Positions 1,546-18,720 of a stretch of DNA of 32,000 nucleotides are shown here, one piece after another (within the stretch, counting starts at the first letter, position 1; each line of letters begins with the position of its first letter). This DNA comes from Sinorhizobium meliloti (lineage in GTDB: Bacteria > Pseudomonadota > Alphaproteobacteria > Rhizobiales > Rhizobiaceae). Position numbers and translations under genes: made by a program. Where the stretch lies: positions 1,440,001 through 1,472,000 of the forward strand of contig NZ_JAGIOS010000002.1 of NCBI RefSeq assembly GCF_017876815.1, given 5' to 3'. Below the pieces are notes generated by a model that was not told where the DNA came from, did no database searches, and saw only the letters and a list, made by a program, of their open reading frames with translations.

Positions 1546-3432
1546 CTACACACACAGGTTTATGTTCATGGACACGGGATGGGGTTCGTACTTCGATATG
1601 GCGCAGACGAAATCCACTGACCCGTTGCCATTCGTTCCCGCGAGGTCGAAGCCAAGCCGCGGATAGAAATCCGACACCATTGCGTTGCGCTCTGTTGGTA
1701 TATAGCGCCCGCGAATGCTGACCACACCGGCTGACACCGCCTGCTCGATCAGGCTGTTCATTAAGCCCTGTTCAACGCCCCGCTCAAGGACGCGGCACGA
1801 TTGCAGCCAGGTGTCGATCTCCCATTCGGAACCCTTCTTGAGGACAATGACGACTCCGATCGTCCCGTGCTGTGCAAACTTATCGTCGAGCCTTATCTGC
1901 CAACCGATAAAGTTTGGGTCTCCCTGCATGCGCCGAACGTCTTCCTCGTTGTAGCGGCGGGTGGTCAGGTTGAACTGGTTGGACTTGTTGATGAGTTGAA
2001 CGATGCGCGGACGGCCTACCTCGTCGAAGGGTGAGATGGTCATCCGCATGTCTAGGGACTTCAGATACTCCTCATAATTGCCTACCCGCGCGCGGATCTC
2101 CGCAACTGCCGCACGCCCCCCGTAGCTGTTTGCCCGCGCCAGATCGTCGCAGTTCAGCGGCAGATGGTCGAAAAGACCTGAACCCGCGACGCGATCGATG
2201 AAGAAGGACGGATCCTCGCCTACCTCAATTGTGGAAACGAGCGGAAGCTCCCGTCGGACGCGTTCGCGTTCGGCAGGATTGTCGTCAACATAGGCAAGTG
2301 ACTCAAGACCGAGACCGAGTTTTTCGGCGATCGCACGAATATTAGTGGCCTTGTCGTCCCAATTGGCCTGAAACACGGCGATGTGCTCTTCTTTTAATAG
2401 CATATCAGGGTGCCGCCGGAACGGCTCACGCGCAACGGCATCGGTGTTTTTCGAACAGACGGCGAGGACTACTCCGCGTTTCCGGAGCCCCAGGACGAAG
2501 TTTTGAAACGCGACGAAGGCCTCTCCCTCTGCCGAATTCTGGCCGATCCGGATACCGGCGAGACCGTCGTCGCCAATGACGCCGCCCCAAAGCGTATTGT
2601 CGAGGTCGAGCACGAGGGCGCGGGCGCTCTTGCCGGTCATGGCAGCGAGAAGAGAAGCAATGTTGTCCGCCGCCAGTGGGCAGAGTTCAACGTTGAAGGG
2701 CACCTTCGCCGAATGATAGGCGATCGGGTCGAACCAGCGCTCAATACCGATCCGTGAAGCAAGGGCGGCTTGATCCCACATCAGCCACCGCCCCTCTGCA
2801 GCGCCATCGCCAAGCATCATGTTGACCCGCAGCCGGAACCGGGCGATCGAACCCGGCGTTGCGATGTCTGCGGAGGTCAGTTGTATGCACGGCGGCAGCG
2901 TCGCAATGATTGCCGGGCATCCGGTTTTCGATCGCGCCGCCTCGGCGATGGCGGAAGCGATCCTTTCGGCCTCCTGCACAGCCTCGTCCTCGGCAGCCCT
3001 GTCCAGCAGTGGCCGTTCCCCTTGGAGGGTGCTCTCATCCAGAACGGCAAGCACGGCATCGAGTCCCCGCTCGAAACAATTTTTGGCGGAGAATGCGAAG
3101 CCAGCTACCCCGTCGTATGGCGCTTCATGCGCCGAGACGAGGAGACCACGCGCCAAACCTGCCGCACCCAAGGGATCGCAGAGATAGCTCAGCGTCCGGT
3201 TTCCGAGGAGGCCGAGTTCGATGCGGGTGAAGCCGTTTCCCTTAATTTTTCCCAGCCGCTTGCCGAGGCGCTCGATCCTGAGCTGTTGGCGTGGGCCCAA
3301 CTGCTGGTTGGCCACCGATCTGGTGGCGGCGTAGTCGGGCATTTCGCCGCCGGCGGCAATTGCCTCGAGCTCGGCCACGCGTGCGGCCCAGTTCTCCTCA
3401 AGCGGCGGTCTCCACGGAAAGAACGTGTTCAT
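1546..3432 (-). CDS. HAD-superfamily subfamily IIIC / FkbH-like domain protein (putative carrier-protein loading enzyme)
   Basis: 628-aa ORF with ATG preceded by GGGGAGG. HAD motifs are present: LVLDLDNTLWGG (DxDxT), VCSKN, YVDDNPAE. The C-terminal part has a GNAT-like region containing WLQSCRVLERGVE, as in FkbH-like proteins. Confidence 0.9.
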   Translation of the reverse strand: MNTFFPWRPPLEENWAARVAELEAIAAGGEMPDYAATRSVANQQLGPRQQLRIERLGKRLGKIKGNGFTRIELGLLGNRTLSYLCDPLGAAGLARGLLVSAHEAPYDGVAGFAFSAKNCFERGLDAVLAVLDESTLQGERPLLDRAAEDEAVQEAERIASAIAEAARSKTGCPAIIATLPPCIQLTSADIATPGSIARFRLRVNMMLGDGAAEGRWLMWDQAALASRIGIERWFDPIAYHSAKVPFNVELCPLAADNIASLLAAMTGKSARALVLDLDNTLWGGVIGDDGLAGIRIGQNSAEGEAFVAFQNFVLGLRKRGVVLAVCSKNTDAVAREPFRRHPDMLLKEEHIAVFQANWDDKATNIRAIAEKLGLGLESLAYVDDNPAERERVRRELPLVSTIEVGEDPSFFIDRVAGSGLFDHLPLNCDDLARANSYGGRAAVAEIRARVGNYEEYLKSLDMRMTISPFDEVGRPRIVQLINKSNQFNLTTRRYNEEDVRRMQGDPNFIGWQIRLDDKFAQHGTIGVVIVLKKGSEWEIDTWLQSCRVLERGVEQGLMNSLIEQAVSAGVVSIRGRYIPTERNAMVSDFYPRLGFDLAGTNGNGSVDFVCAISKYEPHPVSMNINLCV

Positions 3433-3470
3433 AAAGCCGTGCCTCCCCGCGCCGGGGCGTTGATGATCGA

Positions 3471-3719
3471 TCAGTTCTGCTTGCGCTTGACCACGGCATC
3501 GATAAGGCTGCCGAGGTTCTTGAAACCTTGCACCTCAGCCGTGCTGAAGCGGACTGCGAGCTCCTGCTCGATCAGAACCATCAGTCTGACATTGGACAGG
3601 CTGTCCCATTGCGGAACGTCGCGGGCCGTCGTCTCCAGGGTGATCGGGCCGTCGTATTCATCGAACAGCTCACGGATCACGTCTGCGACTTGGGATAGAT
3701 AAAGTTGATGGTCAGACAT
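3471..3719 (-). CDS. acyl carrier protein (phosphopantetheine-binding)
   Basis: 82 aa and acidic, with the phosphopantetheine attachment motif QWDSLSNVRL. It lies 38 nt upstream of the FkbH-like gene on the same strand. Confidence 0.85.
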   Translation of the reverse strand: MSDHQLYLSQVADVIRELFDEYDGPITLETTARDVPQWDSLSNVRLMVLIEQELAVRFSTAEVQGFKNLGSLIDAVVKRKQN

Positions 3720-3780
3720 TTGTTCAACCTTGGTTTGGCGGCAGTTTTCAGGCCGTCGACAGCGCTTTGCGGTGCGCGAT

Positions 3781-5010
3781 TCAATTCCTTGCAGTTCGTT
3801 CGAGATAACTGTTTCGAAGCCGATAACTCTTCACCTCGGTCCGGATACGGCGCTCATAGGCCTCGACGTCTGCCGCCGTCAGCCTGTTTTCGCCCGTCGA
3901 AAGTGACGTAAGTGTTCGCCTGAGTAGCCCCGGGTTATAGACGTGCCCAGGATCACGAAAGTTGCCGAGGTCACCGGCAATCCTGGGGTCATCATCCCAT
4001 GCAAACACGCGCACATTGCGCAGGGTGTCTATCGATTGGACAAAGCATCGCCGCGACAGCAGAACCTCGTCCAGCAACGTCGCGCTTATGTCGCTCATGC
4101 GAAAATAGTAATTGGCGTAGGAGAGGATGGGTATGATGACGTCGACCTGCACGCCCTTCTCGACGAATTTCCGAATCCTCGGCACGAGCTGCTCATTCAC
4201 GGCACTGAAGCTCGCACATGTCCTGCCGCTCGGGGCGTCAACGACTGACCGATACTCTTCGATCACGGCCTGCAGTTCAGCCATTTGGGCGGGCATCTGA
4301 AAGGAGCGGTATTGCCTCTCCGTGAACTTGGCGTACCCTTCGTCGTCTTGCGCTTCGTAGCTCGTCTCCCCCAACAGGACCTTCCATGTTCGCCGCAATG
4401 ATTTCAGGTCGACCATTCGGATGTCGTCGCTGATTTCCTCGTCATAGAGATACTCTGGAAAGCCCTGGCGCATCTTTTCTGGGTCGAGAATGTACATCCA
4501 GTCAAACGTGATGATGATCCGCTTGGCTTGCGCGTTGATGGCGAGTTGATCGAGAACGATGTCGCGGTCCATCGGTCGGGGCCCGCCATAGCTGAGATTG
4601 TAGGCTACGACACTTCCGCCCAGCGCTGCGGATATGTCATCGGGGGAATACATGGCCGTGGTCGAGCCGCCGACAAGAAACGTGTTGATTCCCGATTGCT
4701 TCGAGACGACGTCTACCCACCGCACGACGACATCGCGCGGGACGTCATTGCGCGTCAGTTTGAGCCTCGCTCCCCAGCGGTAGATGTCGTATGGATCCGT
4801 CGCAATGACGATCGTCACGATCGAAAGATACCCCAGCCAGACAAGGCAAAAGGTCACGATCATTGGAAGGGCGGCGCGCCAGCGTGGCGAGAAGCTCGGC
4901 TTCTTACGGAGCGTACCCCTCCGGCCATGCACATGCTCCGCTCCCATCCATCGACCTGCGGCCGACGGTAAATGTGGATTTGTCGACGCGACAAGCATCT
5001 TTCCGACCAT
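3781..5010 (-). CDS. membrane-anchored hypothetical protein, possible DltD/SGNH-like partner of the MBOAT
   Basis: 409-aa ORF starting 3 nt after the MBOAT stop. It has a basic stretch followed by one TM helix (AALPMIVTFCLVWLGYLSIVTIVIA). A Ser motif (FLVGGSTTAM) lies early and DPGH (a D-x-x-H motif) lies near the C-terminus. The exact start is uncertain (M1, M5 or M22 of the ORF). Confidence 0.6.
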   Translation of the reverse strand: MVGKMLVASTNPHLPSAAGRWMGAEHVHGRRGTLRKKPSFSPRWRAALPMIVTFCLVWLGYLSIVTIVIATDPYDIYRWGARLKLTRNDVPRDVVVRWVDVVSKQSGINTFLVGGSTTAMYSPDDISAALGGSVVAYNLSYGGPRPMDRDIVLDQLAINAQAKRIIITFDWMYILDPEKMRQGFPEYLYDEEISDDIRMVDLKSLRRTWKVLLGETSYEAQDDEGYAKFTERQYRSFQMPAQMAELQAVIEEYRSVVDAPSGRTCASFSAVNEQLVPRIRKFVEKGVQVDVIIPILSYANYYFRMSDISATLLDEVLLSRRCFVQSIDTLRNVRVFAWDDDPRIAGDLGNFRDPGHVYNPGLLRRTLTSLSTGENRLTAADVEAYERRIRTEVKSYRLRNSYLERTARN

Positions 5011-5013
5011 GGC

Positions 5014-6582
5014 TTAAAATCCCTGATAGAGGAAAGGCGGCTGCCGCGAGACATAGTGCAGCGACGAGATGGTGAGGATAGCGGCAAAAGCAGCCCAGCC
5101 CCAGGAAGGTCGCCAGATGCTGCGCAGGAACGCGAAGCCGTAGCTCTCGTTTTCATAGGTCATCATGGCCGGCCGATAACGGCGCATCAGCTCCACGGCA
5201 TTTGGCATTAGATAGATGATTGAAAATGCACAGAACAGCATGAGCACGGGTTCACGCATTTCGAAGGCCGATGGGGCATCGAGTGATGCGCCGAACATCT
5301 GCGCATAAAGATGAAACGCGGCGCCGACGCTTTCGGAGCGGAACATCGCCAGGCTGAGGCAGATCAGCATAAAAAATATTGCCCGCTCCACGAGCAATCG
5401 GAAGAACGGCGATGTAGACTTGCACATGCGCTTGTATTTCTTGCTGCCCCTTATCTGCGCCTCGGCCGCAGACCAAACGCCTTGCATCAGGCCGAAGGCC
5501 ACGAAGGTCCAGGCGGCGCCATGCCATAGGCTGAGAACCTGAAAGTTGATTAGCATCGGCAGCCAGAGGCTGAGGACCTGTGTCGGCAGCGGCGAAAGCC
5601 GATGCACTGCGCAGTACCGCGTCCCCGCGATCGAAAGCGGCGTAAATAGGAAACGCGCGATCACGCGGGTCAGCGTCATGTTCCAGCGCCGGTAGTAATC
5701 GAGGATACCATTGGCTTTGAACGGCGAATAGAAGTTGAGCGGGTATCGCAGACCAAACATGCGCGCGAGGCCGAGCGCCATGTCGGAATAGCCTGAAAAA
5801 TCAAAATAGAGCTGCGCCATGTAGGAGAGAGCGCCGATCCAGGCATGTGCGGGATCCATCACCGCCCCGGCGCCGGCAGCGCCAAAGACAAGATCGACGG
5901 TTGGTGCAATATTGTCGGCGATGACGACCTTCTTGAACATGCCGATCGAGATGAAGGCGAGTCCCACGGCGATATTGAGCGGGTCGAAACTGATGAACTT
6001 CCTGGATTTTACCTGGGGATGGAATTCGTGCAGATAGGTAATTGGGCCGATGATCAACTGCGGAAAGAAGCTGACGAAAGCGCCATAACGGCAAAACGCC
6101 CAAAAACCGGACCTCAACGAACGAGTCCCTTCGAAAAATTCGACCACGCTCTTTTCGCGAACATAGGCATCCGCCAGAAAGGCCGCCTGATGGAACGTGT
6201 AGAATGAAATACCAGCCGGTATCGCCACGCCGGCAATATCGGTCAGGAAGTCATTATTGTCGCCAAGAAGAACTGTAACGATCTTGTATTTGAAGTAGCA
6301 CAGCGAGGCTATGTTGTATCCTTGGCCGCATCCATACAGCACTCTGCGGTATGGATTACTGTCGTCCATAGCAAGAAGCGCGTTGGATACCCCGAAATTG
6401 ACAAGCAGGGCGACCAGCAGCAGAAATACCGACGATATGCCGTAGGGAGCATAAAAGATAATTGACGCCGTAAAGATGACGAGTAGTGCCTCATTCCTGC
6501 CTCGCGTCAAAAGAGCAACATAAAACGCAATAAGTGTCACCGGCAGGAAGAGAAATAGGAAGAGTGGATCGATAAAGATCAT
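5014..6582 (-). CDS. MBOAT family O-acyltransferase (AlgI/DltB-like)
   Basis: Polytopic membrane protein with MBOAT motifs YYRRWNMTLTRVI and SLWHGAAW. I moved the start from the track value 6747 to the ATG at 6582 (MIFIDPLFLFLFLPV...). The upstream extension is non-membrane, covers an AT-rich intergenic stretch and contains a hairpin. Confidence 0.9.
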   Translation of the reverse strand: MIFIDPLFLFLFLPVTLIAFYVALLTRGRNEALLVIFTASIIFYAPYGISSVFLLLVALLVNFGVSNALLAMDDSNPYRRVLYGCGQGYNIASLCYFKYKIVTVLLGDNNDFLTDIAGVAIPAGISFYTFHQAAFLADAYVREKSVVEFFEGTRSLRSGFWAFCRYGAFVSFFPQLIIGPITYLHEFHPQVKSRKFISFDPLNIAVGLAFISIGMFKKVVIADNIAPTVDLVFGAAGAGAVMDPAHAWIGALSYMAQLYFDFSGYSDMALGLARMFGLRYPLNFYSPFKANGILDYYRRWNMTLTRVIARFLFTPLSIAGTRYCAVHRLSPLPTQVLSLWLPMLINFQVLSLWHGAAWTFVAFGLMQGVWSAAEAQIRGSKKYKRMCKSTSPFFRLLVERAIFFMLICLSLAMFRSESVGAAFHLYAQMFGASLDAPSAFEMREPVLMLFCAFSIIYLMPNAVELMRRYRPAMMTYENESYGFAFLRSIWRPSWGWAAFAAILTISSLHYVSRQPPFLYQGF

Positions 6583-6719
6583 ATCAAACCCAACCAAAAT
6601 ATCAAATTTGGTCCGAAGCCACTTATCTGAGGCTACGAATCCTACATATGATTTAATTCGTCTGTGTCTTGCGCTACCAACGCAGCTCGCTACGGAGCCT
6701 GAATAGCAATAAATTTTCT

Positions 6720-6741
6720 GGCGGCCATATTTGAGGCCGCC
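6720..6741 (-). terminator. GC hairpin GGCGGCC-N8-GGCCGCC, weak candidate terminator between the VOC gene and the MBOAT cassette
   Basis: Perfect 7-bp inverted repeat. On the - strand it is followed by AGAAAATTTATT, an interrupted T tract. It sits in an AT-rich intergenic region about 220 nt downstream of the VOC gene stop. Confidence 0.3.
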
Positions 6742-6962
6742 GAACAATTAAGAGACAACTATAGGTTACGCACTGAACCACGAGGGTTTCGGCAGAGCCT
6801 TCTATCGCAGCTAAAATCAGGGGTAAAAAAGCACGCATTTAACGAGATGTAAATAGGACAGTAATGCCTTCGGCTATGTGACGGCGACTTAAATCAAAGT
6901 TCAAACCTATGGCGGCTTGACGAAAATGCGTCGGCACCGCTCTCCTGAAGCTGGTGGTCCTT

Positions 6963-7430
6963 TCACGCCCAGCCGTTGAGGGGTGCGAGCGGATCGCCTT
7001 CGGCGCCCTCCACGGTCGCTCTTGTCATGAGTTCGACAACCAGGCCTGCCCGAGTGACTACGAAAGCAAGACGCCTCTTGAAAACCGCGCCATAGCAGGG
7101 CGCAACCACTACCATTGCGCCATCTGCCTCGAGTTTCGCCACGTCGTCCTCCAGACTGTCTGAGAACAGGCAGACGTGATCGAGGCCGCCGCCCTTGGCC
7201 AGCCGACTCGCGACGGGATTCGGCCCGTCACGCAACGGAGCCACCAGTTCTATCGGAACGCTGTCGAGATAAATAAGGAGCGCGCAGGACACATTCTGGG
7301 TCGGATCAATTGCAGGCGGCACAACCAGCCTGGCTCCCTGCTGCGTCCACGTTTTCAGCGCACGATCCATGTTCGGCACGACGAACCCATAGTGAAACAC
7401 TTTACGCGGATCGAACGTGATCTCTGCCAT
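6963..7430 (-). CDS. VOC family protein (glyoxalase / methylmalonyl-CoA epimerase-like)
   Basis: 155 aa. FHYGFVVPNMDRAL...IELVAP...GGGLDHVCLFSD...VVELM matches the paired beta-alpha-beta-beta-beta VOC pattern, including the metal-ligand His/Glu positions. Confidence 0.8.
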   Translation of the reverse strand: MAEITFDPRKVFHYGFVVPNMDRALKTWTQQGARLVVPPAIDPTQNVSCALLIYLDSVPIELVAPLRDGPNPVASRLAKGGGLDHVCLFSDSLEDDVAKLEADGAMVVVAPCYGAVFKRRLAFVVTRAGLVVELMTRATVEGAEGDPLAPLNGWA

Positions 7431-8160: not shown

Positions 8161-8405
8161 CAGCTAAGCGACTCCACCCGGGTTCTCGATTTCTTGGCTC
8201 CGCCACGTCGATCAGATCGGTGCCACGATTGGGACCTCCACTTCGATCACGGAGATGCAACCACCAATTGGTTCGGAGGCCATCACCTCTTATGGGTCAA
8301 CGTATGCGATCGGTGCTCCAGGAAGGACGGACAGTTGATTCCTCTTCGGGAAGGCGAGAACATCGATCGTGCCACTTTTGGCCGGAAGATTTGTGCGGCC
8401 ACATG

Positions 8406-9656
8406 CTATGCCGCTATTTTCAACTTCGCCTGTTCCAGCGACCAATACTCCATGTCGAAGAGATCTGCCTCGCTGATCGGAGTGAAACAGCCATAGGCTT
8501 CCGCGGCGTTGATTACCCGGGCAGCCTGTTCGCAGAGATCTCCGCCGATTTTGGCCGCCTTGGCATTCGCGCCGATCGCGAACATGCCTTTGCCAAGCAC
8601 CAGAACGACCCGTGGATAGACGTCCAGTATCCGTTTCGGCTCGTTGGCGCGGGTCGCGTTTTTCTCAAAGTAGGCCCTGTAACGGTCCGCATAAGCGGCT
8701 AACGCGCTCTCGATTGCGCGTTCATCCGCATCGGCCCCGATGATCATCGGCCAGGGCTTGATACGAATTACGTGGTCTGGCGTCACCGTGCCGCGCAGAC
8801 TGATCGCCTCCACGTTCGGCTTCGATGTGAGTTCACGGATCGCTTGAGTCGAACGGTAATCGAGGAAGACACCCTTTGCGAAAGGCGACCCTTGCCGCAT
8901 CAGTGCTTTTTCCAGCCGCTTAGCAAGCCCCGCGTCTCTCTCGCCGTCATTGGGCTGCGGGCCCGTCAACGCCACGCCGGCGCGGGCGAGTTCCTCCTCT
9001 GCCAGTGTGACGAATTCGATCATCAGCTCATAGGAGGCACGGGCATCGTTTGCGAACGTGAAGAGGCCGTGATTTTCCAGCCATAGACCCTCGCAACCCG
9101 CATGCTCGCGATTGATGCGGTCCGCGGCGATGGAAAGATCGAAGCCGGGCATCACATAGGGCACATAGGCGAGGCGATCGCCATAGATGCGACGAACGGT
9201 GTCGCGCATGTTCGGTTGGTCGGCGAGCGCCAGGACCGCTGTCGCATGCGTGTGGTCGACGTAGGCAAAGGGTATGAAGGCGTGCAGCAGCGCTTCGACG
9301 GACGGGTTCGGCGCGTCCTTCTCGATGAGGCTGGCACGCAACAGTGAAACCATGTCCGGGTCTGAGAGTTTCGGGGTGTTACGGGCTTCGAGCAAAGGCG
9401 CGAGGCGCACGGCGGGCAGGCCCGGCGCCTCGATCGTGTCGAGGTCCCAGCCGCTTCCCTTGATGTGCATGAGGTCCTCTCCCTCGTCAGACCTTACCTT
9501 GACCGAGGTGTTGCCGCCGCCGTGCAGCACAAGGTCCGGGTCACTGCCGATGATACGGGAGGTGTAGATACGAAGGCCGAGGGCCTCGCTCTGTCCCGCG
9601 GCGCGTGCCGCCTCTACAAAACGTGCTGCGTCCTCGTCGTTCCAGCGGCTTTCCAT
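8406..9656 (-). CDS. class II aldolase/adducin-domain protein; equals the N-terminal half of bifunctional aldolase/short-chain dehydrogenases, SDR half missing
   Basis: Start re-set to the ATG at 9656 (MESRWNDEDAARF...); the track start at 9950 overlaps lsrB. Motifs: LVLHGGGNTSVK, HIKGSGWDL, VDHTHATAVLALA, PYVMPGFDL. The protein ends at ...MEYWSLEQAKLKIAA, which is where full-length RhaD-like homologues continue into a Rossmann SDR domain. Confidence 0.8.
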   Translation of the reverse strand: MESRWNDEDAARFVEAARAAGQSEALGLRIYTSRIIGSDPDLVLHGGGNTSVKVRSDEGEDLMHIKGSGWDLDTIEAPGLPAVRLAPLLEARNTPKLSDPDMVSLLRASLIEKDAPNPSVEALLHAFIPFAYVDHTHATAVLALADQPNMRDTVRRIYGDRLAYVPYVMPGFDLSIAADRINREHAGCEGLWLENHGLFTFANDARASYELMIEFVTLAEEELARAGVALTGPQPNDGERDAGLAKRLEKALMRQGSPFAKGVFLDYRSTQAIRELTSKPNVEAISLRGTVTPDHVIRIKPWPMIIGADADERAIESALAAYADRYRAYFEKNATRANEPKRILDVYPRVVLVLGKGMFAIGANAKAAKIGGDLCEQAARVINAAEAYGCFTPISEADLFDMEYWSLEQAKLKIAA

Positions 9657-9684
9657 GCGAATTGTCCTGTCTATGATTGAAGGT

Positions 9685-9710
9685 CGGCGGGCAACCGGAG
9701 CCGCCCGCCG
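9685..9710 (-). other. intercistronic GC stem-loop between lsrB and the aldolase gene
   Basis: CGGCGGGC-N10-GCCCGCCG, an 8-bp perfect stem, begins 12 nt after the lsrB stop. No U-tract follows on the - strand, so it is more likely an mRNA structure than a full terminator. Confidence 0.3.
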
Positions 9711-9721
9711 TTTGTGCGTGC

Positions 9722-10759
9722 TTAGAAGTCGAAGTTGCCAATGTTTTCCTTGGTGAAAACGGTGCGCTCCGGCAGCAGGATGATGCCGTTGCCATCGGCT
9801 TCGTAATCGTAGCCCTGTACCTTGTTGGCTGAGACTTCGACGGTTCCGACGCCGGGGATCTCCAGTTTCTCGCCGACCTTCATGGGGCCGTTCTTCAAGA
9901 CGTGATCGGCAACGAAGACCGAGATCTTGCCTTGCTGCGTGACGTCCCAAAGGCCGAAGCGCTGGATCGTGCCGCGCTCGATATAGGGCCGCATGACATT
10001 TGGGGTGGAGAAGCCGACGATAGTGACGCCCTCGGCGCGCTCCAAATTTTCCGCCGCCTGCGCCGCTGCCGGCAGGGCGTTTGCATCGGGCGCGATGATC
10101 GCGTCGAGGTCAGGATAGGTCTGCAGGATACTTTCAGCCGTCTGCAGTGATTTCTGAGCGTCGTTGTAGCCATACTGGGTGGTAACGATTTCCCAGCCCG
10201 GATGCTCCTTGGCGATCTTCGCCTTGGCGGCTTCCGCCCAGGCGTTCTGGTCGGTCACGGTCGGGCTCGAGTAGAAGAAGGCAACCTTGGCCTTTTCCTT
10301 CTTCACACCCTCGGCCGCCATGTCGACCAGAAGGCCGCCAAGCTGCTCAGGCGTGCCTTGGTTGATGTAATAGCTGCGGCAATCCGGGTTGACGTCGCTG
10401 TCCCAGGTCATGACGAGCACGCCGCGTTCCATGGCGCGCTTCAGCGCCGGGCACAGGCCGTCCGGAGAGACGGAGGAGACGATGAGCGCGTTGTAGCCCT
10501 GGTTGACGAAGTTGTTGATGAACTGGACCTGCCCGGAAACGCTCGGCTCCGTCGGGCCGTCATAGGTGACCTTCGCGCCGACTTCCTCGCCCGCCTTCAC
10601 CGCGCCGGCGCCGCCGGAGGTGAAGAAGCCGACACCCACCAGCTTGGGGATGAAGGCGATCTGGTTTTCTGCATGCGCAGCGCCCGAGGCGAGCATGGTG
10701 CCGGCCAAAAGCGCCGCGGCGAGGGCGCTCGATTTCATGATGGTCTTGATCATTCTCAT
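9722..10759 (-). CDS. lsrB: autoinducer-2 (AI-2) periplasmic binding protein LsrB
   Basis: Signal peptide (..[10 protein letters not shown]) followed by long blocks that I recognise as near-identical to enterobacterial LsrB: [94 protein letters not shown] overlap with the lsrD stop. Confidence 0.92.
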
Positions 10760-11769
10760 TCTCCTCCTGAAGTGACGGCCACCCGGTTCTGTCTCTGTTG
10801 CCGGGCGACCGCGATGAAATCGGCCAGCATCGCGCTTGCGTGGCGCAATGCGACCGCGACGACCAGCAACCCTCCCGAAAGTGCGCTGGAAATCTGGCTG
10901 GGGACGCCGGCCGCCTGCAAGCCCTGCTGCAGGTAACCGATGACGAAGGTGGCAAGCAGGGTGCCGAGGATGGAGCCCTGACCGCCATAGATGGAGGCGC
11001 CGCCGAGTACGGCCGCGGTGACGGCTGGCAGCAGCGTCGCCGAACCGAGGTCGACGCGCGCGGAGCCGAAATAGGCCGACATGACGAGGCCTGCGATGGC
11101 CGCCGAAACGCCGGTAATGACATAGGTGAACGTCTGGACGCGGCCGACCGGGATACCGGCGAAATGGGCAGCCCTTTCAGACTGGCCGGAAAGGAACACG
11201 GTGCGACCGAAGCGAGTGAAATGCAGAAGGACGATGAGCACGAGCGAGAGTGCGAGGAAGAGCGCGAGAGGTGCCGGCAGCCCAAGGAATTCGGCATAGC
11301 CGAAGGCGTTGAAGGCCTCCGGAAAGTTACCGATGCCCTCGTAGCCGCCCGCGCCGACGAGACCGGAGGCGACGGTCGCCGTACCCTGGAAAAGATAGAG
11401 GCTGCCGAGCGTGACGACGAGCGGCTGTATCTTGGACAGGTGGATGACCGTGGCGTTGAGGAGCCCGCAGAGCGCGCCGGTAACCAGAGCGAGCAAGATG
11501 GAAAGCGGAAGCGGCACGCCGTAGAATGTCGCGACGCCAAACATGATGGCAGTAAGGCCGATTACTGAGGCGAAAGACACGTCAATGCCGCCGGCAATTA
11601 TGACAAGGGTCAGCGGTAGGGCGACGATGCCGATCTGAACGAAGTCTGAGGTGCCGTAGATCAGGTTCGTAAGATTGAGGAAGCGCGGATTGACGAGACC
11701 GAAGATGAGAAGTTCTGCGACGAGCATGGCAAAGAGGGCGGTCTCCCAGCGGAAGATCAGCTTTTTCAT
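10756..11769 (-). CDS. lsrD: AI-2 ABC transporter permease LsrD
   Basis: 337-aa polytopic permease. [47 protein letters not shown] and [22 protein letters not shown] align with LsrD. ATGA overlaps at both ends. Confidence 0.9.
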
Positions 11770-12797
11770 CGGCTTGCCTCCACATTGCGCGCCGTCGTCG
11801 TCTCACGGGATTGTGTTGGGCCGCGCTCGTGCACCCCATAGCGGCGGGCACGGATGCGCCGGTCGATAATCTGGCGGATGCGGCCGTCGAGGAGCAGGAC
11901 CGAGAGCAGGATCGCGCCTGCAATGAAGTCATTCCAATAGGCCGGGATCTTCAAGAAAACGAGGGCACTGTCTATCGAAGTGATAAAGATAACGGCGGTG
12001 AAGACGCCAGCGACCGAACCGGTGCCTCCGAGAAGGCTCACGCCTCCTAGCACATTGACGGCGATGGCCTTCAGTTCGATGCCGTTACCGGCCTGATTTG
12101 GGATGAAGCCGATCTGGGCGGCGAAGACGAGGCCGGCGAGGGCGGCGCAGACGCCCGTTGCAACGAAAGCGGAAAACTGCACCAGCTTAACCGGTACACC
12201 GAGATGGTGGGCAGCCGCGCGGTTATCGCCGACTGCGTAGAAATTGCGGCCGAAGCGCGTCCTTCGCAGTACGATCCAGGCGAGCGCAACAAGTGCCAGC
12301 ACAACAATCGTGAGGACGGAGAAGCCGAAGCCGAGATTGGCGGCGAGCGCCTTCAGACCCTGCGGCAGGTCCTCGATCCAGCGCCCGCCCGTGAGGACGA
12401 GCATGATGCCGCGATAAAGTCCAAGCGTGCCAAGGGTGGCGACGATGGATGGAATGCCGAGATAGGCAACCATCAGACCGTTGAAGGCCCCGGCGACAGC
12501 ACCGGTTGCAAGGCAGAAGGCGATGGCGAGCGGCAGGCTCACGCCGGCTGTGAGCGAAAGGCCGAGCACCGCGGCGCTGAGGCCAAGCACCGAACCGCTC
12601 GACACATCGATATTGCGCGTCAGGATGACCATCATAGTCCCGAGCGAGATCAGCATCAGGACGAGGCTGTTGGAGACAACCACCGAGGCAGTGGCGCCGG
12701 ACAGATAGCCGGGCGCGGCCGTGCCGATCGCGGCGTAGGCGACGGCAAGCACTAGGATGAGCGTTGCGACGCGATTGCGGGAAAAGAGATCAAGCAT
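11766..12797 (-). CDS. lsrC: AI-2 ABC transporter permease LsrC
   Basis: Start re-set to the ATG at 12797 (MLDLFSRNRVATL...), which overlaps the lsrA stop (ATGCTTGA). LTRNIDVSSGSV, IVATLGTLGLYRGIMLVLTGGRWIE, FYAVGDN and QIGFIPNQAGNG match LsrC. The upstream 152 codons of the track ORF lie inside lsrA in another frame. Confidence 0.9.
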   Translation of the reverse strand: MLDLFSRNRVATLILVLAVAYAAIGTAAPGYLSGATASVVVSNSLVLMLISLGTMMVILTRNIDVSSGSVLGLSAAVLGLSLTAGVSLPLAIAFCLATGAVAGAFNGLMVAYLGIPSIVATLGTLGLYRGIMLVLTGGRWIEDLPQGLKALAANLGFGFSVLTIVVLALVALAWIVLRRTRFGRNFYAVGDNRAAAHHLGVPVKLVQFSAFVATGVCAALAGLVFAAQIGFIPNQAGNGIELKAIAVNVLGGVSLLGGTGSVAGVFTAVIFITSIDSALVFLKIPAYWNDFIAGAILLSVLLLDGRIRQIIDRRIRARRYGVHERGPTQSRETTTARNVEASR

Positions 12798-14307
12798 GGC
12801 GGCCCTCCGAGGCGCCGAAGGCGAGGCGGGCGATGGCGTCAACCGAGATCTGGTCCGTGAGTTTGCCGCCAGACTGGCCGAAGGCCATGATCTCGACCCG
12901 GTCGGCAAGCTGTTCGATCTCGTCGAAGTCGGATGAAATGAGGATGATGGCGACGCCGTCGGCGGCAAGCCGGCGGATGACGTCGTAGAGGTCGTTGCGT
13001 GCCGCCACGTCCACGCCGCGCGTGGGCTCGTCGAGAATGAGCACCTTGGGCCGAGCGGAAAGGCATTTGGCGAGCAGCACCTTCTGCTGGTTGCCACCCG
13101 AAAGACCGCGCGCCTCCTGGTCGGCGCCGGTGCACTTGATGCCCATGCTCGCGCGGAACCCATCGAAGACCTTACGCTCGGCGCCGGGCCGCAGAAAGAA
13201 GGGCAGGCGGTGCACCAGGTAGGACGAAACGTTCCAGGAAAGCGGTGCTTCAAGGAAAAGGCCGTGCTGCTGGCGGTCTTCAGGCAGGTAGACGAGGCCG
13301 AGGTCGATGCATATGCGCGGTGAGCGCTTCTTCAGTTCCGCGCCATCAAAGACGACGCTGCCCCCCATCTGCGGCCGAAGGCCGAAGAGCGTTTCGGCGA
13401 ACTCCGTGCGTCCGGCGCCCACGACCCCGGCAAGGCCGAGGATTTCGCCGGCCCGCACGTCGAGGCTGATATTGCGGAACCCTTCGCCGCTGAGGTCGCG
13501 CACGCTGAGACGCGGCTTGCCGATCTGCGAAACCTTGCGGCACACACGCTTCTTGTCGGCATCATCCGCGATCTGCACACGGCTCATCGCGTCGATAATC
13601 ACGGCGTCGCTGTAGCTGTCGAGCGGCCCGCTAAGCACGATCACACCGTCGCGCAGTACGCTGATTGTGCCGCAGATCTCGCGAATCTCGCGCAGCTTGT
13701 GCGAGATGAAGAAGATGCCGACACCCTGACTCTGGAGCTTGCGCACGCGCTGAAAGAGGGCGCTGGTCTCGAAGGGGGTTAGCGCCGAAGTCGGTTCGTC
13801 GAGTATCAGCACGCGCGCGTCACGTACGAGACCGCGCAGGATTTCGACAATCTGCCGCTCGGCGATTTCAAGGGCGGCGGCCTGCACGTCGAGGTCGAGC
13901 GAGACTGAGAGCTCGGCGACGAGTTGCTCGACGCGCGGCCTTAGCGCGCGGGGAGAGGCTGCAAGGCCAAGGCAGATGTTTTCCAGAACGCTCTGGTTGG
14001 GCAGGATATGCGCCTCTTGCGGCACCAGGTAAAGCCCGAGTTTCTGCGCGAGCGCCGGCGATGCATGGGTGAGGGCGCGGCCGTTGATCTCGATGGCGCC
14101 GGCATTAGACGCAATGACGCCCGACATGATTTTCATGAGGCTCGACTTGCCAGCGCCGTTGCCGCCGAGAAGCGCATGCACCTCTCCCGCGTGCAAAACT
14201 AGGGAAACACCTTTTAGCACCGGAACGGCACCGTAGGACTTCCAGACGTCCGTCAGCTTCGCGACCCTCCCGGCCACCGGGCTCCCAGCCATTCCGCACC
14301 TGTTCAT
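12790..14307 (-). CDS. lsrA: AI-2 ABC transporter ATP-binding protein LsrA (duplicated ATPase domains)
   Basis: 505 aa with Walker A GGNGAGKSS, signature LSGGNQQK, Walker B LILDEPT twice, and sugar-type tandem ABC architecture. First gene of the lsrACDB string. The true start may be the second ATG at 14292, which follows AGGTG. Confidence 0.9.
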   Translation of the reverse strand: MNRCGMAGSPVAGRVAKLTDVWKSYGAVPVLKGVSLVLHAGEVHALLGGNGAGKSSLMKIMSGVIASNAGAIEINGRALTHASPALAQKLGLYLVPQEAHILPNQSVLENICLGLAASPRALRPRVEQLVAELSVSLDLDVQAAALEIAERQIVEILRGLVRDARVLILDEPTSALTPFETSALFQRVRKLQSQGVGIFFISHKLREIREICGTISVLRDGVIVLSGPLDSYSDAVIIDAMSRVQIADDADKKRVCRKVSQIGKPRLSVRDLSGEGFRNISLDVRAGEILGLAGVVGAGRTEFAETLFGLRPQMGGSVVFDGAELKKRSPRICIDLGLVYLPEDRQQHGLFLEAPLSWNVSSYLVHRLPFFLRPGAERKVFDGFRASMGIKCTGADQEARGLSGGNQQKVLLAKCLSARPKVLILDEPTRGVDVAARNDLYDVIRRLAADGVAIILISSDFDEIEQLADRVEIMAFGQSGGKLTDQISVDAIARLAFGASEGRHA

Positions 14308-14313
14308 ATGTAA

Positions 14314-14370
14314 TTCATGAAAGTCATGTGATCACATAGCTCAATCGTCGTCAATATGCCCGTCACGTGA
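14314..14370. promoter_or_regulatory. cluster of perfect palindromes in the lsrA-lsrR divergent intergenic region (candidate LsrR operators/promoters)
   Basis: TTCATGAA (14314-14321), ATGTGATCACAT (14326-14337) and TCACGTGA (14363-14370) lie within the 225-nt AT-richer spacer between divergent lsrA and lsrR. Confidence 0.4.
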
Positions 14371-14532
14371 TGAACGACTATAGGAAGCCAGTGCATCGCT
14401 CGAAGCTCGGATTAGCCGCGCAAAATCAACGGATTGGAACTGGGAAGAATATTTCGCAGGCCTAACGCGTTGACGGATCAAAAGTTTTATTGGTATTCAA
14501 ATGATCAGAAATCGACCGAGGGAGCCGCTTGC

Positions 14533-15480
14533 ATGGCGTCGGACAACGGAGAATGGAGTTATGCCGACACGGACGAGGAGATCCTCACCCGTATCGCTTG
14601 GTATTACTACAACGACGGGCTGACGCAGAACGAGATCGGCGAGAAACTCAACATGTCGCGCATCAAGGTGTCGCGTCTTTTGGAGAGCGGCCGACGCTCC
14701 GGCATTATTCAGGTGCGTATCAACTCGAGATATCAGGGCTGCCTGGCGCTCGAGCGGCAGATCAAGGAGCGCTACGGGCTGTTGGAAGCCTACGTGGTGC
14801 CGCAGCTTCCCGATCAGGATCCGAGTGATCGGCTGGGTCAGGCGGCCGCGCAATTTCTCATGCAACGGCTTCAGCCGGACGACCTTCTGGCGGTCGGTTG
14901 GGGCGCGACCGTGAGCAACACGATCCAGCGGCTCGGCCATGTCGCCAACGAGCGCAATATTGGCCTAGTCAGCCTGACCGGCGGCGTCGGCACTTATGTC
15001 GACGGCATGCGAACGGCCAACTGGGGCAGCAGCGTTCATCTCGTACCGGCGCCGCTCGTCGTGCGCGACCCGGATGTCGCACGCAACCTCTCTTCCGAAC
15101 CCGCCGTCGCCAACTTGCTCGAAATGGCGCTCAACGCGAGTTACCAGCTCGTTGGCATCGGTGAACTTTCGGCCACCTCCACTGTCGTGCGTTCCGGCTA
15201 TGTCAGCCCCGATGAGGTGGAGCCGTTGCGCCGCAAGGGCGCCGTCGGCGACATCCTCTGCCAGTTCTACAACGAATGCGGAGAGCCACTCGAGTTGCCG
15301 CTGCACGATCGAGTGATCGGCGTGAAGCTCGCGGCGCTGTCGCGCGCGGAAAAAGTCGTGGCGGCGGCGGGTGGCATCCATAAGGTACAGGCCATCCATG
15401 CAGCGCTTTGCGGAAAGGTCGTCGGCATCCTCATAACCGACGAGACGACCGCGAGCCGCCTCATCGAGCTCGAGGACTGA
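14533..15480 (+). CDS. lsrR: SorC/DeoR-type transcriptional repressor LsrR
   Basis: Start re-set to the ATG at 14533, preceded by GAGGGAG. N-terminal HTH (IAWYYYNDGLTQNEIGEKLNMSRIKVSRLLESGRRSGIIQVRI) plus a sugar-phosphate-binding SorC domain. Divergent from lsrA and followed by lsrK, as in E. coli lsrRK. Confidence 0.9.
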   Translation: MASDNGEWSYADTDEEILTRIAWYYYNDGLTQNEIGEKLNMSRIKVSRLLESGRRSGIIQVRINSRYQGCLALERQIKERYGLLEAYVVPQLPDQDPSDRLGQAAAQFLMQRLQPDDLLAVGWGATVSNTIQRLGHVANERNIGLVSLTGGVGTYVDGMRTANWGSSVHLVPAPLVVRDPDVARNLSSEPAVANLLEMALNASYQLVGIGELSATSTVVRSGYVSPDEVEPLRRKGAVGDILCQFYNECGEPLELPLHDRVIGVKLAALSRAEKVVAAAGGIHKVQAIHAALCGKVVGILITDETTASRLIELED

Positions 15481-15484
15481 GACC

Positions 15485-17047
15485 ATGAAGACTTCCTATA
15501 TGCTGGCCGTCGATGCCGGCACGGGCAGCGGCCGCGCGGTGATCTTCGACGAAAACGGCAACCAGATCGCCAGCGCCCAGCACGAATGGTGGCACCGGGC
15601 CGATCCGCGCTTTCCGGGCTCGATGGACTTCGATGTGGAGGGCAACTGGTCGCTGCTGTCACGCGCCATTCGCCAGGCGATCGCCGAATCCCGCATTGCA
15701 CCCGCCGAGATCCGTGCAGTCAGTGCCACCAGCATGCGTGAGGCGATCGTCGCCTATGACCGCAGCGGTCGGGAAATCTGGGCCTGCGCCAACGTCGACA
15801 GTCGCGCCGTGAGCGAGGTGCGCGACCTGAAGCGCGATTTTGCCGATCTGGAGCGGACGCTTTATACTGAGAGCGGGCAGACTTTCGCGCTCGGCACCCT
15901 GCCGCGCCTGCTCTGGCTGAAGCGCAACCTGCCGGACGTCTATGCTCGCATCCACAGGATCAGCATGCTGTCAGATTGGGTTCTGGCGCGTCTCTCCGGC
16001 GTCATCGCGAGCGATCCTTCCAATGCCGGCACGACCGGTCTCTACAGCCTAACGAAACGCAATTGGATGCCTGAGGCGCTGAGCAAGGCCGGCATGCGCG
16101 ACGATATCTTCCCGGAAAGCGTCGAGCCGGGCACGGTGATCGGCCGGGTCACCGAAAGGGCGGCTAGCGAGACGGGCATTGCCACGGGCACACCCGTTGT
16201 CATGGGAGGCGGCGACTGCCAGAGCGGGGCAGCGGCAGTCGGTGTCGTGAATGAAGGTGACTGCGCCGTGCTCGGGGGGACCTTCTGGCAGCAGGTGGTG
16301 AATGTCGGCCCGTCCGTGTCCGATCCGTCTATGGACCTGCGCATCAATCCGCATGTCGTCAACGGCCTAAACCAGGCCGAGGCGATAAGCTTCTTCGTCG
16401 GCATGGTAATGCGTTGGTTCCGCGACAGTTTCGGCGCGGAAGAGGTCGCGGCGGCCGGGCCCGGCGGCGATGCCTACAGGCTCCTCGAGGAGAAAGCAGC
16501 CGGGGTGCCGGTGGGCGCTTACGGCATCATTCCGGTCTTCTCCGACGTCATGCACTACGGCAACTGGTATCACGCCGCGCCTTCGCTTCTGAACCTTTCT
16601 ATCGACCCGGAAAAATCGGGCAAGGCCGCGATCTTTCGCGCCCTTCAGGAGAATGCGGCGATTGTCGCGGCCCGCAACCTTTCGGCTATCTTCAAGCTTT
16701 CCGGCAAAACGCCGGATAAGATCGTCTTTGCGGCCGGCGCGTCGAAATCAGCCCACTGGTCGCAGATCCTTGCGGATGCCACCGGCCTTCCGGTCGTAAC
16801 GCCCGTGGTCAAGGAGGCGACGGCGCTCGGCTGCGCCGCAGCGGCGGCAATCGGGATCGGCCTACGCCGCAACTTCGTCGAGGCGGCGGCGAGCTGGGTG
16901 CGCTGGGACAAGCGTTTCGAGCCGAATTTCGACCACAAGGTTATCTACGAGGCGGCGGGCGAGCGCTGGGCACGCGCCTACGCGCTGCAGCGACAGCTCG
17001 TGGACGAGGGCGTCACCACGGCCATGTGGAAGGCGCCAGGTCTCTGA
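15485..17047 (+). CDS. lsrK: autoinducer-2 kinase LsrK (FGGY carbohydrate kinase family)
   Basis: 520 aa. LAVDAGTGSGRAVIFDENGNQIA, PGSMDFD, WACANVDSRA, DPSNAGTTGL, VLGGTFWQQVVN, AAPSLLNLSIDP and the C-terminal LWKAPGL-type end match LsrK along the whole length. Confidence 0.92.
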   Translation: MKTSYMLAVDAGTGSGRAVIFDENGNQIASAQHEWWHRADPRFPGSMDFDVEGNWSLLSRAIRQAIAESRIAPAEIRAVSATSMREAIVAYDRSGREIWACANVDSRAVSEVRDLKRDFADLERTLYTESGQTFALGTLPRLLWLKRNLPDVYARIHRISMLSDWVLARLSGVIASDPSNAGTTGLYSLTKRNWMPEALSKAGMRDDIFPESVEPGTVIGRVTERAASETGIATGTPVVMGGGDCQSGAAAVGVVNEGDCAVLGGTFWQQVVNVGPSVSDPSMDLRINPHVVNGLNQAEAISFFVGMVMRWFRDSFGAEEVAAAGPGGDAYRLLEEKAAGVPVGAYGIIPVFSDVMHYGNWYHAAPSLLNLSIDPEKSGKAAIFRALQENAAIVAARNLSAIFKLSGKTPDKIVFAAGASKSAHWSQILADATGLPVVTPVVKEATALGCAAAAAIGIGLRRNFVEAAASWVRWDKRFEPNFDHKVIYEAAGERWARAYALQRQLVDEGVTTAMWKAPGL

Positions 17048-17087
17048 GTTTTATAGATCCGTCAATCAACATAGCAGGAATTAAGAC

Positions 17088-17402
17088 ATGCTCATCCAGA
17101 TGGTTAGCATCAACGTCAAGCAAGGCCACGCCGCAGATTTTCTGGAGGCGTTCCGCATAAACTACGAAGGCACGCGCCAGGAGCCCGGTAATCTGCGCTT
17201 CGACGTCCTGCGCAATCCGGACGACGACCACAGCTTCGTCATCTATGAAGTCTTCAAGTCGCCTGAGGCGCTCGACGCGCACCGCAAGACCGAACACTAC
17301 CAGGAATGCGTGCGCCGGATCGACCCGATCCTCGCCGGCCCACGGACCAAGACCTTCTATAATGTCGAGATGGCCGATTTTCTCGCCGCGGGCCAAGCCT
17401 AG
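17088..17402 (+). CDS. lsrG: phospho-DPD isomerase LsrG (ABM monooxygenase-fold)
   Basis: 104 aa. INVKQGHAADFLEAFRINYEGTRQEPGNLRFDVLRNPDD..FVIYEVFKSPEALDAHRKTEHYQECV aligns with E. coli LsrG (EGNLRFDVLQDP, FYIYEAYKDE, HKTTPHYKTCV). Confidence 0.88.
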   Translation: MLIQMVSINVKQGHAADFLEAFRINYEGTRQEPGNLRFDVLRNPDDDHSFVIYEVFKSPEALDAHRKTEHYQECVRRIDPILAGPRTKTFYNVEMADFLAAGQA

Positions 17403-18169: not shown

Positions 18170-18231
18170 CAGGGCAGTACTCGCTCCAGAAAGCTTCTGG
18201 TAGATAACCACACATCGTGTTCGCGGACAAA

Positions 18232-18290: not shown

Positions 18291-18312
18291 CATACAGAGC
18301 GACCGCCCCGTT

Positions 18313-18697: not shown

Positions 18698-18720
18698 ATT
18701 CGAGACGATGGCTATCTGCG

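Follow-up and report, generated by a model that had tools for sequence, protein, structure and literature searches.

In the published mechanism of bacterial MBOAT/SGNH pathways, the acyl group is passed to the Tyr of an FXYXXF motif, the "acyl shuttle," which serves as the covalent acyl carrier between the MBOAT and its SGNH partner, and then to the SGNH Ser (PMC12148441). This motif is on a separate microprotein, DltX, in the Dlt system, whereas it is fused C-terminally in PatA, AlgI, and related MBOATs, and a universally conserved MBOAT His is needed in PatA and DltB (PMC12148441). According to the same 2025 mechanistic paper, MBOAT/SGNH pathways other than Dlt are without a carrier protein, and all of these others take acyl-coenzyme A (acyl-CoA) (PMC12148441). 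The characterized FkbH enzyme OzmB (366 amino acids [aa]) uses 1,3-bisphosphoglycerate (1,3-BPG) to form a phosphoglyceryl-S-enzyme, an acyl-S-enzyme intermediate (phosphoglyceryl-S-OzmB), which upon dephosphorylation yields glyceryl-S-acyl carrier protein (ACP) (PMC9057759). FkbH-like domains likewise load glycerate from 1,3-BPG on the carrier domains of nonribosomal peptide synthetases (NRPSs) (PMC13122637). Here, we describe a four-gene cassette on the Sinorhizobium meliloti megaplasmid pSymB that we rate as a variant of MBOAT/SGNH envelope acylation, one that combines the logic of Dlt with an MBOAT of the PatA type, a partner from a new family, and a polyketide-type loader. The cassette probably carries out carrier-protein-dependent O-acylation of an extracytoplasmic polymer. 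It lies in a 32,000-nt stretch of contig NZ_JAGIOS010000002.1 (positions 1,440,001 to 1,472,000), referred to below as the window, and its four genes are as follows.

5014 to 6582, minus strand: MBOAT-family membrane acyltransferase, 522 aa (PF03062 profile match)
3781 to 5010, minus strand: 409-aa type II membrane-anchored protein (predicted fold; no Pfam or NCBIfam match)
3471 to 3719, minus strand: 82-aa ACP (PF00550 profile match)
1546 to 3432, minus strand: 628-aa long-form FkbH-type enzyme (TIGR01686 and TIGR01681 profile matches)

The first-pass annotation of the window had described these as four co-directional reverse-strand genes, and their coordinates were confirmed: the four minus-strand open reading frames (ORFs) lie 3, 61, and 38 nt apart. 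The motifs it had quoted were all recovered by translation, namely, RWNMTL (N301) and LWHG (H354) in the MBOAT, VGGSTT (Ser116) and DPGH (D353/H356) in the 409-aa protein, and WDSLS (Ser40) in the ACP. Its view that other MBOAT systems have no dedicated carrier agrees with what is stated for the MBOAT/SGNH pathways besides Dlt (PMC12148441). Profile searches with the four proteins, which it had recommended, gave the expected MBOAT, PP-binding, and FkbH/HAD-IIIC matches, but no DltD match.

The cassette is not peculiar to this replicon. A search with a profile of the 409-aa protein, limited to one genome per species, identified 18 loci in Ensifer/Sinorhizobium, a Rhizobium metagenome-assembled genome, a "Rhizobiales bacterium," Qipengyuania, Erythrobacter, Aurantiacibacter, Alteraurantiacibacter, and Sphingobium aquiterrae, and the order MBOAT-409-ACP-FkbH was found in all 18, one of which is truncated by a contig end. 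In the reverse search, the N-terminal domain of the FkbH-type enzyme was used against metagenome contigs; 11 loci were found, and each of the 11 has the cassette as far as the contig reaches. The four-gene arrangement is not due to chance, because it is syntenic in 18/18 genome loci and in the 11 metagenome loci. The carriers belong to the Rhizobiaceae and the Sphingomonadales, and the flanking genes differ by lineage. For instance, the Erythrobacter flanks encode Wzy, a pyruvyl transferase, a sulfotransferase, and an Asn synthase, those of Sphingobium contain PGA_cap, Mur-ligase, and ATP-grasp genes, and those of the soil metagenome locus L023 are unrelated metabolic genes. Several loci lie within polysaccharide gene clusters (Wzy, pyruvyl transferase, sulfotransferase, and nucleoside diphosphate [NDP]-sugar enzymes). 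Clustering of the flanking ORFs of 25 loci, with a minimum length of 90 aa that the ACP does not reach, showed no fifth gene common to all 25; only the three large cassette genes were universal, and the next-largest clusters consisted of out-of-frame ORFs overlapping the cassette genes. The ratio of nonsynonymous to synonymous substitution rates (dN/dS) was 0.04 to 0.29 in every computable comparison, within S. meliloti (0.14 to 0.29) and between genera, which indicates that all four genes are under purifying selection. Thus, the co-occurrence of the four genes as a unit, which the first-pass annotation had proposed as a test, was borne out across genera with unrelated flanks, and the synteny, the differing flanks, and the dN/dS values together indicate that the four genes form a real, self-contained, functional, and horizontally mobile cassette.

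The 628-aa enzyme consists of an N-terminal domain, a HAD-IIIC domain, and an FkbH-specific C-terminal region. It had been called HAD-IIIC/FkbH-like from its sequence, and both curated cutoffs were exceeded, by TIGR01686 (FkbH) with 288.6 bits against 146.65 (E value of 5.8e-86, residues 271 to 597) and by TIGR01681 (HAD-IIIC) with 61.3 bits against 35.75 (E value of 1.6e-16). Three features of the enzyme are referred to below.

2593 to 2607, minus strand: HAD motif I, DLDNT (D276/D278/T280), the phosphatase nucleophile motif, invariant in the comparison with Streptomyces durmitorensis FkbH
1789 to 1800, minus strand: SCRV with Cys546, the putative acyl-S-enzyme site and the only Cys invariant in the comparison with polyketide-context FkbH
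2647 to 3240, minus strand: N-terminal domain, residues 65 to 262, homologous to the BF1531 N-terminal domain

The FkbH used for comparison was the 341-aa S. durmitorensis protein of a methoxymalonate subcluster, whose gene neighbors are FkbI-, FkbJ-, and FkbK-like genes, an FkbM-family methyltransferase gene, and a type I polyketide synthase (PKS) gene. D276/D278/T280, S327, K361, D383/D384, and C546 are invariant between the two enzymes, and Cys546 is the candidate acyl-carrying Cys. Since the HAD motifs and this Cys are common to the cassette enzyme and the polyketide-context FkbH, glyceryl-S-ACP is the likely donor; as the donor of the MBOAT, it is also the most economical prediction. No DltA-type adenylating enzyme was found among the four cassette genes with Pfam and NCBIfam, as anticipated by the suggestion that an FkbH enzyme stands in place of the DltA ligase, and with such a loader the acyl group would be a non-amino one. 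The HAD-IIIC domain matches Protein Data Bank (PDB) entry 3slr (BF1531) with an E value of 1.7e-52. The N-terminal domain, which is missing from the 341-aa Streptomyces FkbH, matches the same entry in a profile search (E value of 4.5e-5) and has a degenerate LLGNRT where a GDS-like motif would stand. This domain was also considered as a relative of the 409-aa family and rejected (hhalign probability of 0.5%).

The 82-aa protein is a carrier protein, as had been claimed: PF00550 exceeds its cutoff, if marginally, weak ACP matches were also obtained in NCBIfam, and the WDSL sequence is kept in all orthologues. The predicted phosphopantetheine site is Ser40 of WDSLS (codon at 3600 to 3602). Its best PDB match is the putative ACP 2lml (E value of 4e-12), and no DltC chain was matched in the PDB at an E value of ≤1, the matches being generic ACPs. 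By sequence, then, it resembles generic ACPs and not DltC.

The longest ORF of the MBOAT gene extends to a TTG at 6747. However, all orthologues align from residue 1 of the 522-aa form, which starts at the ATG at 6582, and this form was used. Two of its features matter for the mechanism.

5521 to 5523, minus strand: His354 of LWHG, the putative catalytic His (translation and alignment with WHG of DltB)
5017 to 5034, minus strand: C-terminal hexapeptide FLYQGF, residues 517 to 522, with Tyr519; an FXYXXF acyl-shuttle motif followed by the stop codon

The family assignment is clear (PF03062, 61.1 bits against a cutoff of 27, E value of 1.4e-16). The only PDB sequence matches are to DltB (6bug/8jem, E value of 2e-17), in which LWHG is aligned with the catalytic His region of DltB. 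The DltB equivalog TIGR04091 scored 112.1 bits, which is under its cutoff of 375. In tblastn searches of plasmid records, the identity to generic "MBOAT family O-acyltransferases" was 28 to 35% over 80 to 98% of the length, compared to 24 to 28% over about half of the length for annotated DltB. Of 25 other cassette copies, 24 end in FLYQGF as well and one (L007) ends in FLYEGF. Of the two names in the original description, AlgI/DltB-like, the MBOAT/AlgI-type part therefore stood, with PF03062 and the FXYXXF motif in its favor, but membership in the DltB lineage did not; the sequence comparisons place the MBOAT, in its architecture, with the PatA/AlgI type. With the shuttle motif fused to the MBOAT, no DltX would be needed, and the gaps of the cassette have no room for a DltX-like ORF.

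The 409-aa protein was the most difficult to place. It has no match of any kind in Pfam or NCBIfam. Pfam searches with its relatives gave nothing for 10 homologues at an E value of ≤1, and for 95 homologues at an E value of ≤0.1 they gave no DltD and no convincing match, with one of the 95 showing a weak match to ALGX. A phmmer search with the protein and a search with the 95-sequence profile found no match among PDB sequences and no DltD chain, and the hhalign probability against Staphylococcus aureus DltD was 0.5%. Nevertheless, the family is large: an indexed homologue search returned 33 relatives, all at least 46% identical, and an exhaustive profile search returned 1286 representative clusters at an E value of ≤1e-3, with 421 at ≤1e-10. 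The informative route was structure prediction with a deep alignment, followed by a Foldseek search. An earlier model from 26 close homologues had a predicted local distance difference test score (pLDDT) of only 71.5 and had PatB among its structural matches, whereas the AlphaFold2 model from the deep alignment reached a pLDDT of 91.9 and a predicted template modeling score (pTM) of 0.87. It has a transmembrane helix at residues 42 to 71 after a basic tail, then an alpha/beta domain with parallel strands and a helical insert at about residues 193 to 284.

4798 to 4887, minus strand: N-terminal transmembrane anchor, residues 42 to 71, a predicted helix with the sequence PRWRAALPMIVTFCLVWLGYLSIVTIVIAT
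4663 to 4665, minus strand: Ser116 in LVGGSTT (GxS), the putative nucleophile by conservation
3943 to 3954, minus strand: D353-P-G-H356 (DxxH), the putative acid/base of the triad by conservation

By the positive-inside rule, with the basic tail in the cytoplasm, the domain would be periplasmic. The top nine PDB matches of the model in Foldseek are all DltD chains (3bma, 7dxm, 6o93, and 6pfx; probability of 1.00, E values of 6e-5 to 1e-3), and these are followed by platelet-activating factor (PAF)-acetylhydrolase and GDSL SGNH proteins, whose cores superpose with a TM-score of ∼0.6 by target length. Across the 95 homologues, which go down to ∼18% identity, G114, S116, and H356 are invariant, and D72, P73, D339, and D353 are at least 90% conserved, although Glu replaces D353 in some close homologues. 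The order GxS ... DxxH, corresponding to blocks I and V, is the one typical of SGNH enzymes. The block II Gly and block III Asn candidates for the oxyanion hole, G142/G143 and N138, are invariant among close homologues only and not across the 95-member alignment. Hence, the proposal of a DltD/SGNH-like protein agrees with the predicted fold, the Ser and DxxH motifs, and the membrane helix, but not with regard to membership in the DltD family, for which Pfam and hhalign give no sign. The modeled likeness to DltD is at the level of the fold and the catalytic residues only, and in our reading the protein would work like DltD or PatB yet belong to a separate, undescribed family. In GenBank and UniRef it is named "TonB-dependent receptor." We rejected this name, apparently a misannotation that has been propagated, on two grounds: neither Pfam nor NCBIfam gave any match, and the model shows an alpha/beta fold with one membrane helix, at the N terminus.

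The four parts were also found, differently ordered, in distant bacteria: on Tistrella plasmid pTM1 and Rhodobacteraceae plasmid pSC52_6 and in the metagenome loci L027, L029, and L043. On pTM1 of Tistrella mobilis, one strand carries an MBOAT ending in FIYAGF and a 340-aa protein distantly related to the 409-aa family (hhalign probability of 76%, E value of 2e-5), and the other carries an ACP and a long-form FkbH; an S-adenosylmethionine (SAM) methyltransferase gene, on the strand of the MBOAT, lies between the ACP and FkbH genes. The order on pSC52_6 of Rhodobacteraceae bacterium SC52 is ACP-FkbH-MBOAT-distant 409 relative (hhalign probability of 81%)-VOC-acyltransferase, with sulfotransferase and 3′-phosphoadenosine 5′-phosphosulfate (PAPS) synthesis genes 5′ of the cassette. 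Two metagenome loci have the order MBOAT-409 relative-methyltransferase-ACP-MaoC dehydratase-FkbH, one of them inside a cluster of NDP-sugar, DegT, WbqC, and sulfotransferase genes, and another variant locus has FkbH-MBOAT-409 relative. The MBOATs of the variant cassettes end in FIYAGF, FIYMGF, FAYQVF, or FIYGVF. On the short contig stretches available for two distant relatives of the 409-aa protein (L030 and L044), an MBOAT lies upstream but neither an ACP nor an FkbH is seen; one relative has no adjacent MBOAT.

Some additional genes were found repeatedly in or beside these cassettes. A homologous SAM methyltransferase gene, joined in two cases by a MaoC-type dehydratase gene, is present among the ACP and FkbH genes (L027, 1172 to 4724; L029, 8158 to 11643; L026, 5331 to 6266; and L042, 1433 to 1543), which suggests that the glyceryl unit may be tailored on the carrier in the hosts of these sister cassettes. 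Of the 25 close loci, 14 (L008, L010, L012 to L014, L016, L018, L020, L032, L036 to L038, L005, and L034) have a sulfotransferase-family gene (∼280 aa) beside the cassette. In 13 of the 25 it lies on the opposite strand at most ∼2 kb upstream of the MBOAT gene, and in one further locus it is downstream. It also occurs in two variant cassettes (L029, 12708 to 13634, and L047, 2326 to 3093), in one of them with a PAPS synthesis gene alongside. Sulfated and O-methylated glycerate units from FkbH domains are found in cyanobacterial peptides (PMC13122637), so that the substituent might conceivably be a sulfated glyceryl group or, alternatively, the acceptor polymer might itself be sulfated.

The proposed mechanism has three steps. 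In the cytoplasm, the FkbH-type enzyme would take 1,3-BPG and form an acyl-S-enzyme on Cys546. Its HAD domain (D276/D278) would then strip the 3-phosphate, and the D-glyceryl group would move to the phosphopantetheine arm at Ser40 of the ACP. The glyceryl-S-ACP would dock at the cytoplasmic face of the MBOAT, where His354 is predicted to catalyze transfer through the membrane tunnel to the enzyme's own Tyr519 (FLYQGF) on the periplasmic side. Finally, Ser116 of the 409-aa protein (triad D353/H356) would take the acyl group and esterify a hydroxyl of a periplasmic or surface glycan. The frequent polysaccharide-gene neighborhoods of the cassette point to a glycan as the acceptor.

Several observations weigh against this mechanism, the steps of which are predictions from sequence and a structural model. 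To our knowledge, no long-form FkbH (628 aa, with the extra N-terminal domain) has been characterized, and its substrate could differ; it is for this reason that we infer glyceryl-S-ACP rather than assert it. We also know of no report of a glyceryl ester on S. meliloti polysaccharides. The PF00550 match of the ACP is marginal (21.4 bits against a cutoff of 20.8). By sequence, the MBOAT is nearer to presumed acyl-CoA-dependent MBOATs than to DltB, and position 301, in its RWNMTL motif (window positions 5680 to 5682), is Asn in S. meliloti and Ensifer sp. USDA 6670 but His (RWHMTL) in DltB and all other orthologues. At the sequence level, no similarity of the 409-aa protein to DltD or to a Pfam SGNH family was detected, and the global TM-score of its model against DltD is low (∼0.35). 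Lastly, in the sequence of strain 1021 (L002, NC_003078.1) a 1-bp deletion at about window position 2349 (codon ∼361) splits the FkbH gene into two frames, whereas strain 2011 and the other pSymB records each have one full-length match. The deletion is either a sequencing error in the original reference or genuine, in which case the best-studied laboratory strain would be without its loader; this might be the reason that the predicted modification has gone unseen.

The same architecture might transfer a different acyl group (lactyl, phosphoglyceryl, or another group derived from an acyl phosphate), or glyceryl-ACP might be modified before transfer. That the extra N-terminal domain of the 628-aa enzyme is shared only with the uncharacterized BF1531 would fit with this, as would the SAM methyltransferase and MaoC dehydratase genes that sister cassettes add between the same genes and the frequent sulfotransferase and PAPS synthesis neighbors; on-carrier O-methylation and sulfation of FkbH-loaded glycerate have been proposed for suomilide (PMC13122637). 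However, the S. meliloti cassette has no tailoring gene, its HAD phosphatase motifs and Cys are intact, as in the methoxymalonate-context FkbH aligned, and the characterized FkbH enzymes in the cited papers all convert 1,3-BPG to a glyceryl group (PMC9057759, PMC13122637), so we regard a different acyl group as unlikely here, though worth keeping in mind. A glycan as the acceptor is called into question by loci such as L023, whose flanks are unrelated to polysaccharide synthesis, by the PGA_cap, Mur-ligase, and ATP-grasp neighbors in Sphingobium, which suggest a poly-amino-acid polymer, and by DltD itself, which acts on a lipid-anchored polyol phosphate and not on a sugar. Candidate acceptors would then be a membrane lipid, lipid A, a periplasmic protein, or a small molecule of the osmoregulated glucan type. 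This we consider improbable, because the known bacterial MBOAT/SGNH pairs all modify envelope glycopolymers (PMC12148441) and many of the loci are embedded in polysaccharide clusters.

A third alternative is that the MBOAT works with the 409-aa protein in ordinary O-acetylation from acetyl-CoA and that the ACP and FkbH genes belong to an unrelated pathway and are merely adjacent. MBOATs of the PatA/AlgI type with a fused shuttle motif do use acetyl-CoA (PMC12148441), and ACP and FkbH genes are absent from the short contig stretches of L030 and L044. But the ACP and FkbH genes are present in 29 of 29 close loci, they are kept despite reordering in Tistrella, Rhodobacteraceae SC52, L027, L029, and L043, and no ketosynthase or other consumer of acyl-ACP is conserved nearby, all of which makes a chance neighborhood highly improbable. 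The least credible alternative, to which we give almost no weight, is that the cassette is a decaying relic without function in S. meliloti. It could account for the His-to-Asn change at position 301, confined to the S. meliloti/USDA 6670 lineage, for the 1-bp deletion in strain 1021, and for the strain-variable DNA 3′ of the cassette with its degenerate DUF6678 gene. On the other hand, about 40 S. meliloti pSymB records (95 to 99% identity) have intact ORFs, the within-species dN/dS values are low, the FkbH gene of strain 2011 is intact, and many eukaryotic MBOATs have Asn at the position equivalent to Asn301. Carrier-fed transfer of a glyceryl group to a glycan is the reading that we retain as the most probable.

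On pSymB, the cassette has the lsr autoinducer-2 (AI-2) uptake operon on one side and rkp capsule-export genes ∼8 to 12 kb away on the other. The cassette stretch (5,037 bp) has matches of 95 to 99% identity in 40 Sinorhizobium pSymB records, and its counterpart in strain 1021 is at 631,205 to 636,239. One noncoding feature was recorded.

6583 to 6962, no strand assigned: AT-rich intergenic region 5′ of the MBOAT gene (GC content of 0.463, compared to 0.602 for the whole window)

This region is probably the promoter region of the cassette. A consensus scan for promoters and terminators was uninformative, its counts not being clearly above those for shuffled sequence. Directly 5′ of the MBOAT gene in S. 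meliloti is a VOC-family gene (6963 to 7430, minus strand). A VOC-family protein is also encoded after the cassette in the Rhodobacteraceae variant (L047, 8592 to 9020), but the mutual similarity is weak (E value of 0.03). Some VOC enzymes epimerize acyl-thioesters, and a role is thus conceivable. However, as a fifth core part the gene was rejected: apart from S. meliloti and USDA 6670, no orthologous cassette has it as a neighbor, and its presence in both S. meliloti and the Rhodobacteraceae variant is probably a coincidence. By the annotation of strain ml59, a complete lsr-type AI-2 uptake and processing operon adjoins the cassette at about window positions 8400 to 17400 (lsrF-like aldolase, lsrB, lsrD, lsrC, lsrA, a regulator, lsrK, and an lsrG-like monooxygenase). 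A dip in GC content to 0.53 to 0.57 was seen at 17000 to 19000, where the ml59 equivalent has a terminase fragment together with short hypothetical genes, pointing to a small patch that is either variable or a phage remnant. On the 3′ side of the FkbH gene, similarity to ml59 stops beyond position ∼1173 (the window from 1 to 1172), so the conserved block ends just past the cassette. The DUF6678 gene of ml59 is left in the window (∼1165 to 1412) as frameshifted fragments.

The first-pass annotation knew of no characterized system with this composition, and none was found in open-access papers and preprints. In the same literature, no paper linking FkbH or an ACP to a bacterial MBOAT/SGNH system was found, although a prior description elsewhere is possible. 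Searches on gellan glycerate, BF1531, and Sinorhizobium MBOAT returned nothing relevant, and queries for expression or mutant data with guessed SMb2100x to SMb2102x tags returned none, or matches that could not be tied to the cassette genes.

We hold a broader interpretation more tentatively than the acylation function itself, as one that may be right but that we would not yet favor. In it, the S. meliloti cassette is the type example of a widespread undescribed class, in which FkbH diverts 1,3-BPG to a dedicated ACP and a PatA-type MBOAT and a new SGNH-like family install glyceryl esters on surface polysaccharides. Sister cassettes would install O-methyl-, dehydrated, or sulfated glyceryl groups, and S. 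meliloti would have an undetected, symbiosis-relevant substituent, missed perhaps because strain 1021 may have a frameshifted loader. If true, carrier-protein-fed MBOAT systems would also exist in diderms, built with a PatA-type MBOAT and a fused Tyr shuttle, and the acyl group would be drawn straight from glycolysis by a family so far known only from polyketide and nonribosomal peptide pathways. The 409-aa family, with its 1286 representative clusters and no Pfam model, would probably add a third type of partner for MBOATs. On the surface polysaccharides of rhizobia and sphingomonads, which govern symbiosis, phage adsorption, and biofilm properties, new ester substituents (glyceryl and derivatives of it) are predicted.

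Among the known systems, Dlt (DltA, DltB, DltC, DltD, and DltX), by which teichoic acids are D-alanylated, is the closest in logic. In Dlt, too, a cytoplasmic loader charges a small dedicated carrier protein, the MBOAT passes the acyl group across the membrane to the Tyr of FXYXXF, and the final transfer to the polymer is made by a membrane-anchored protein that has a Ser/Asp/His triad (PMC12148441). DltD chains give the best structural matches to the 409-aa protein, and of all solved structures the MBOAT sequence matches DltB alone. However, the loader here is FkbH/HAD-IIIC and not the adenylating DltA ligase, there is no DltX, the shuttle motif being on the MBOAT, the MBOAT is under the DltB cutoff and nearer to non-Dlt MBOATs, the 409-aa protein is without sequence similarity to DltD, and the host is a diderm. 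The PatA/PatB, AlgI/AlgJ/AlgX, and WssH-type O-acetylation systems share with the cassette an MBOAT of ∼500 aa, the fused FXYXXF motif, a periplasmic catalytic-Ser partner, and diderm hosts. In contrast, those systems use acetyl-CoA and are stated to be without a carrier protein (PMC12148441), whereas here ACP and loader genes are obligatorily linked to the MBOAT and the partner falls in no Pfam SGNH family. With the FkbH/OzmB enzymes and their discrete ACPs (OzmE and FkbJ, in methoxymalonyl-ACP and tetronate pathways), the cassette has in common the FkbH domain, the HAD motifs, the Cys, and a small ACP gene alongside. It differs in having no dehydrogenases, O-methyltransferase, ketosynthase, or PKS/NRPS, the predicted consumer being a membrane acyltransferase, and in the extra N-terminal domain of about 270 aa, which is not found in the polyketide-context FkbH aligned. 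This long-form architecture, with homologous N-terminal and HAD domains, is that of Bacteroides fragilis BF1531 (PDB 3slr), an uncharacterized protein of which only the N-terminal part has been crystallized.

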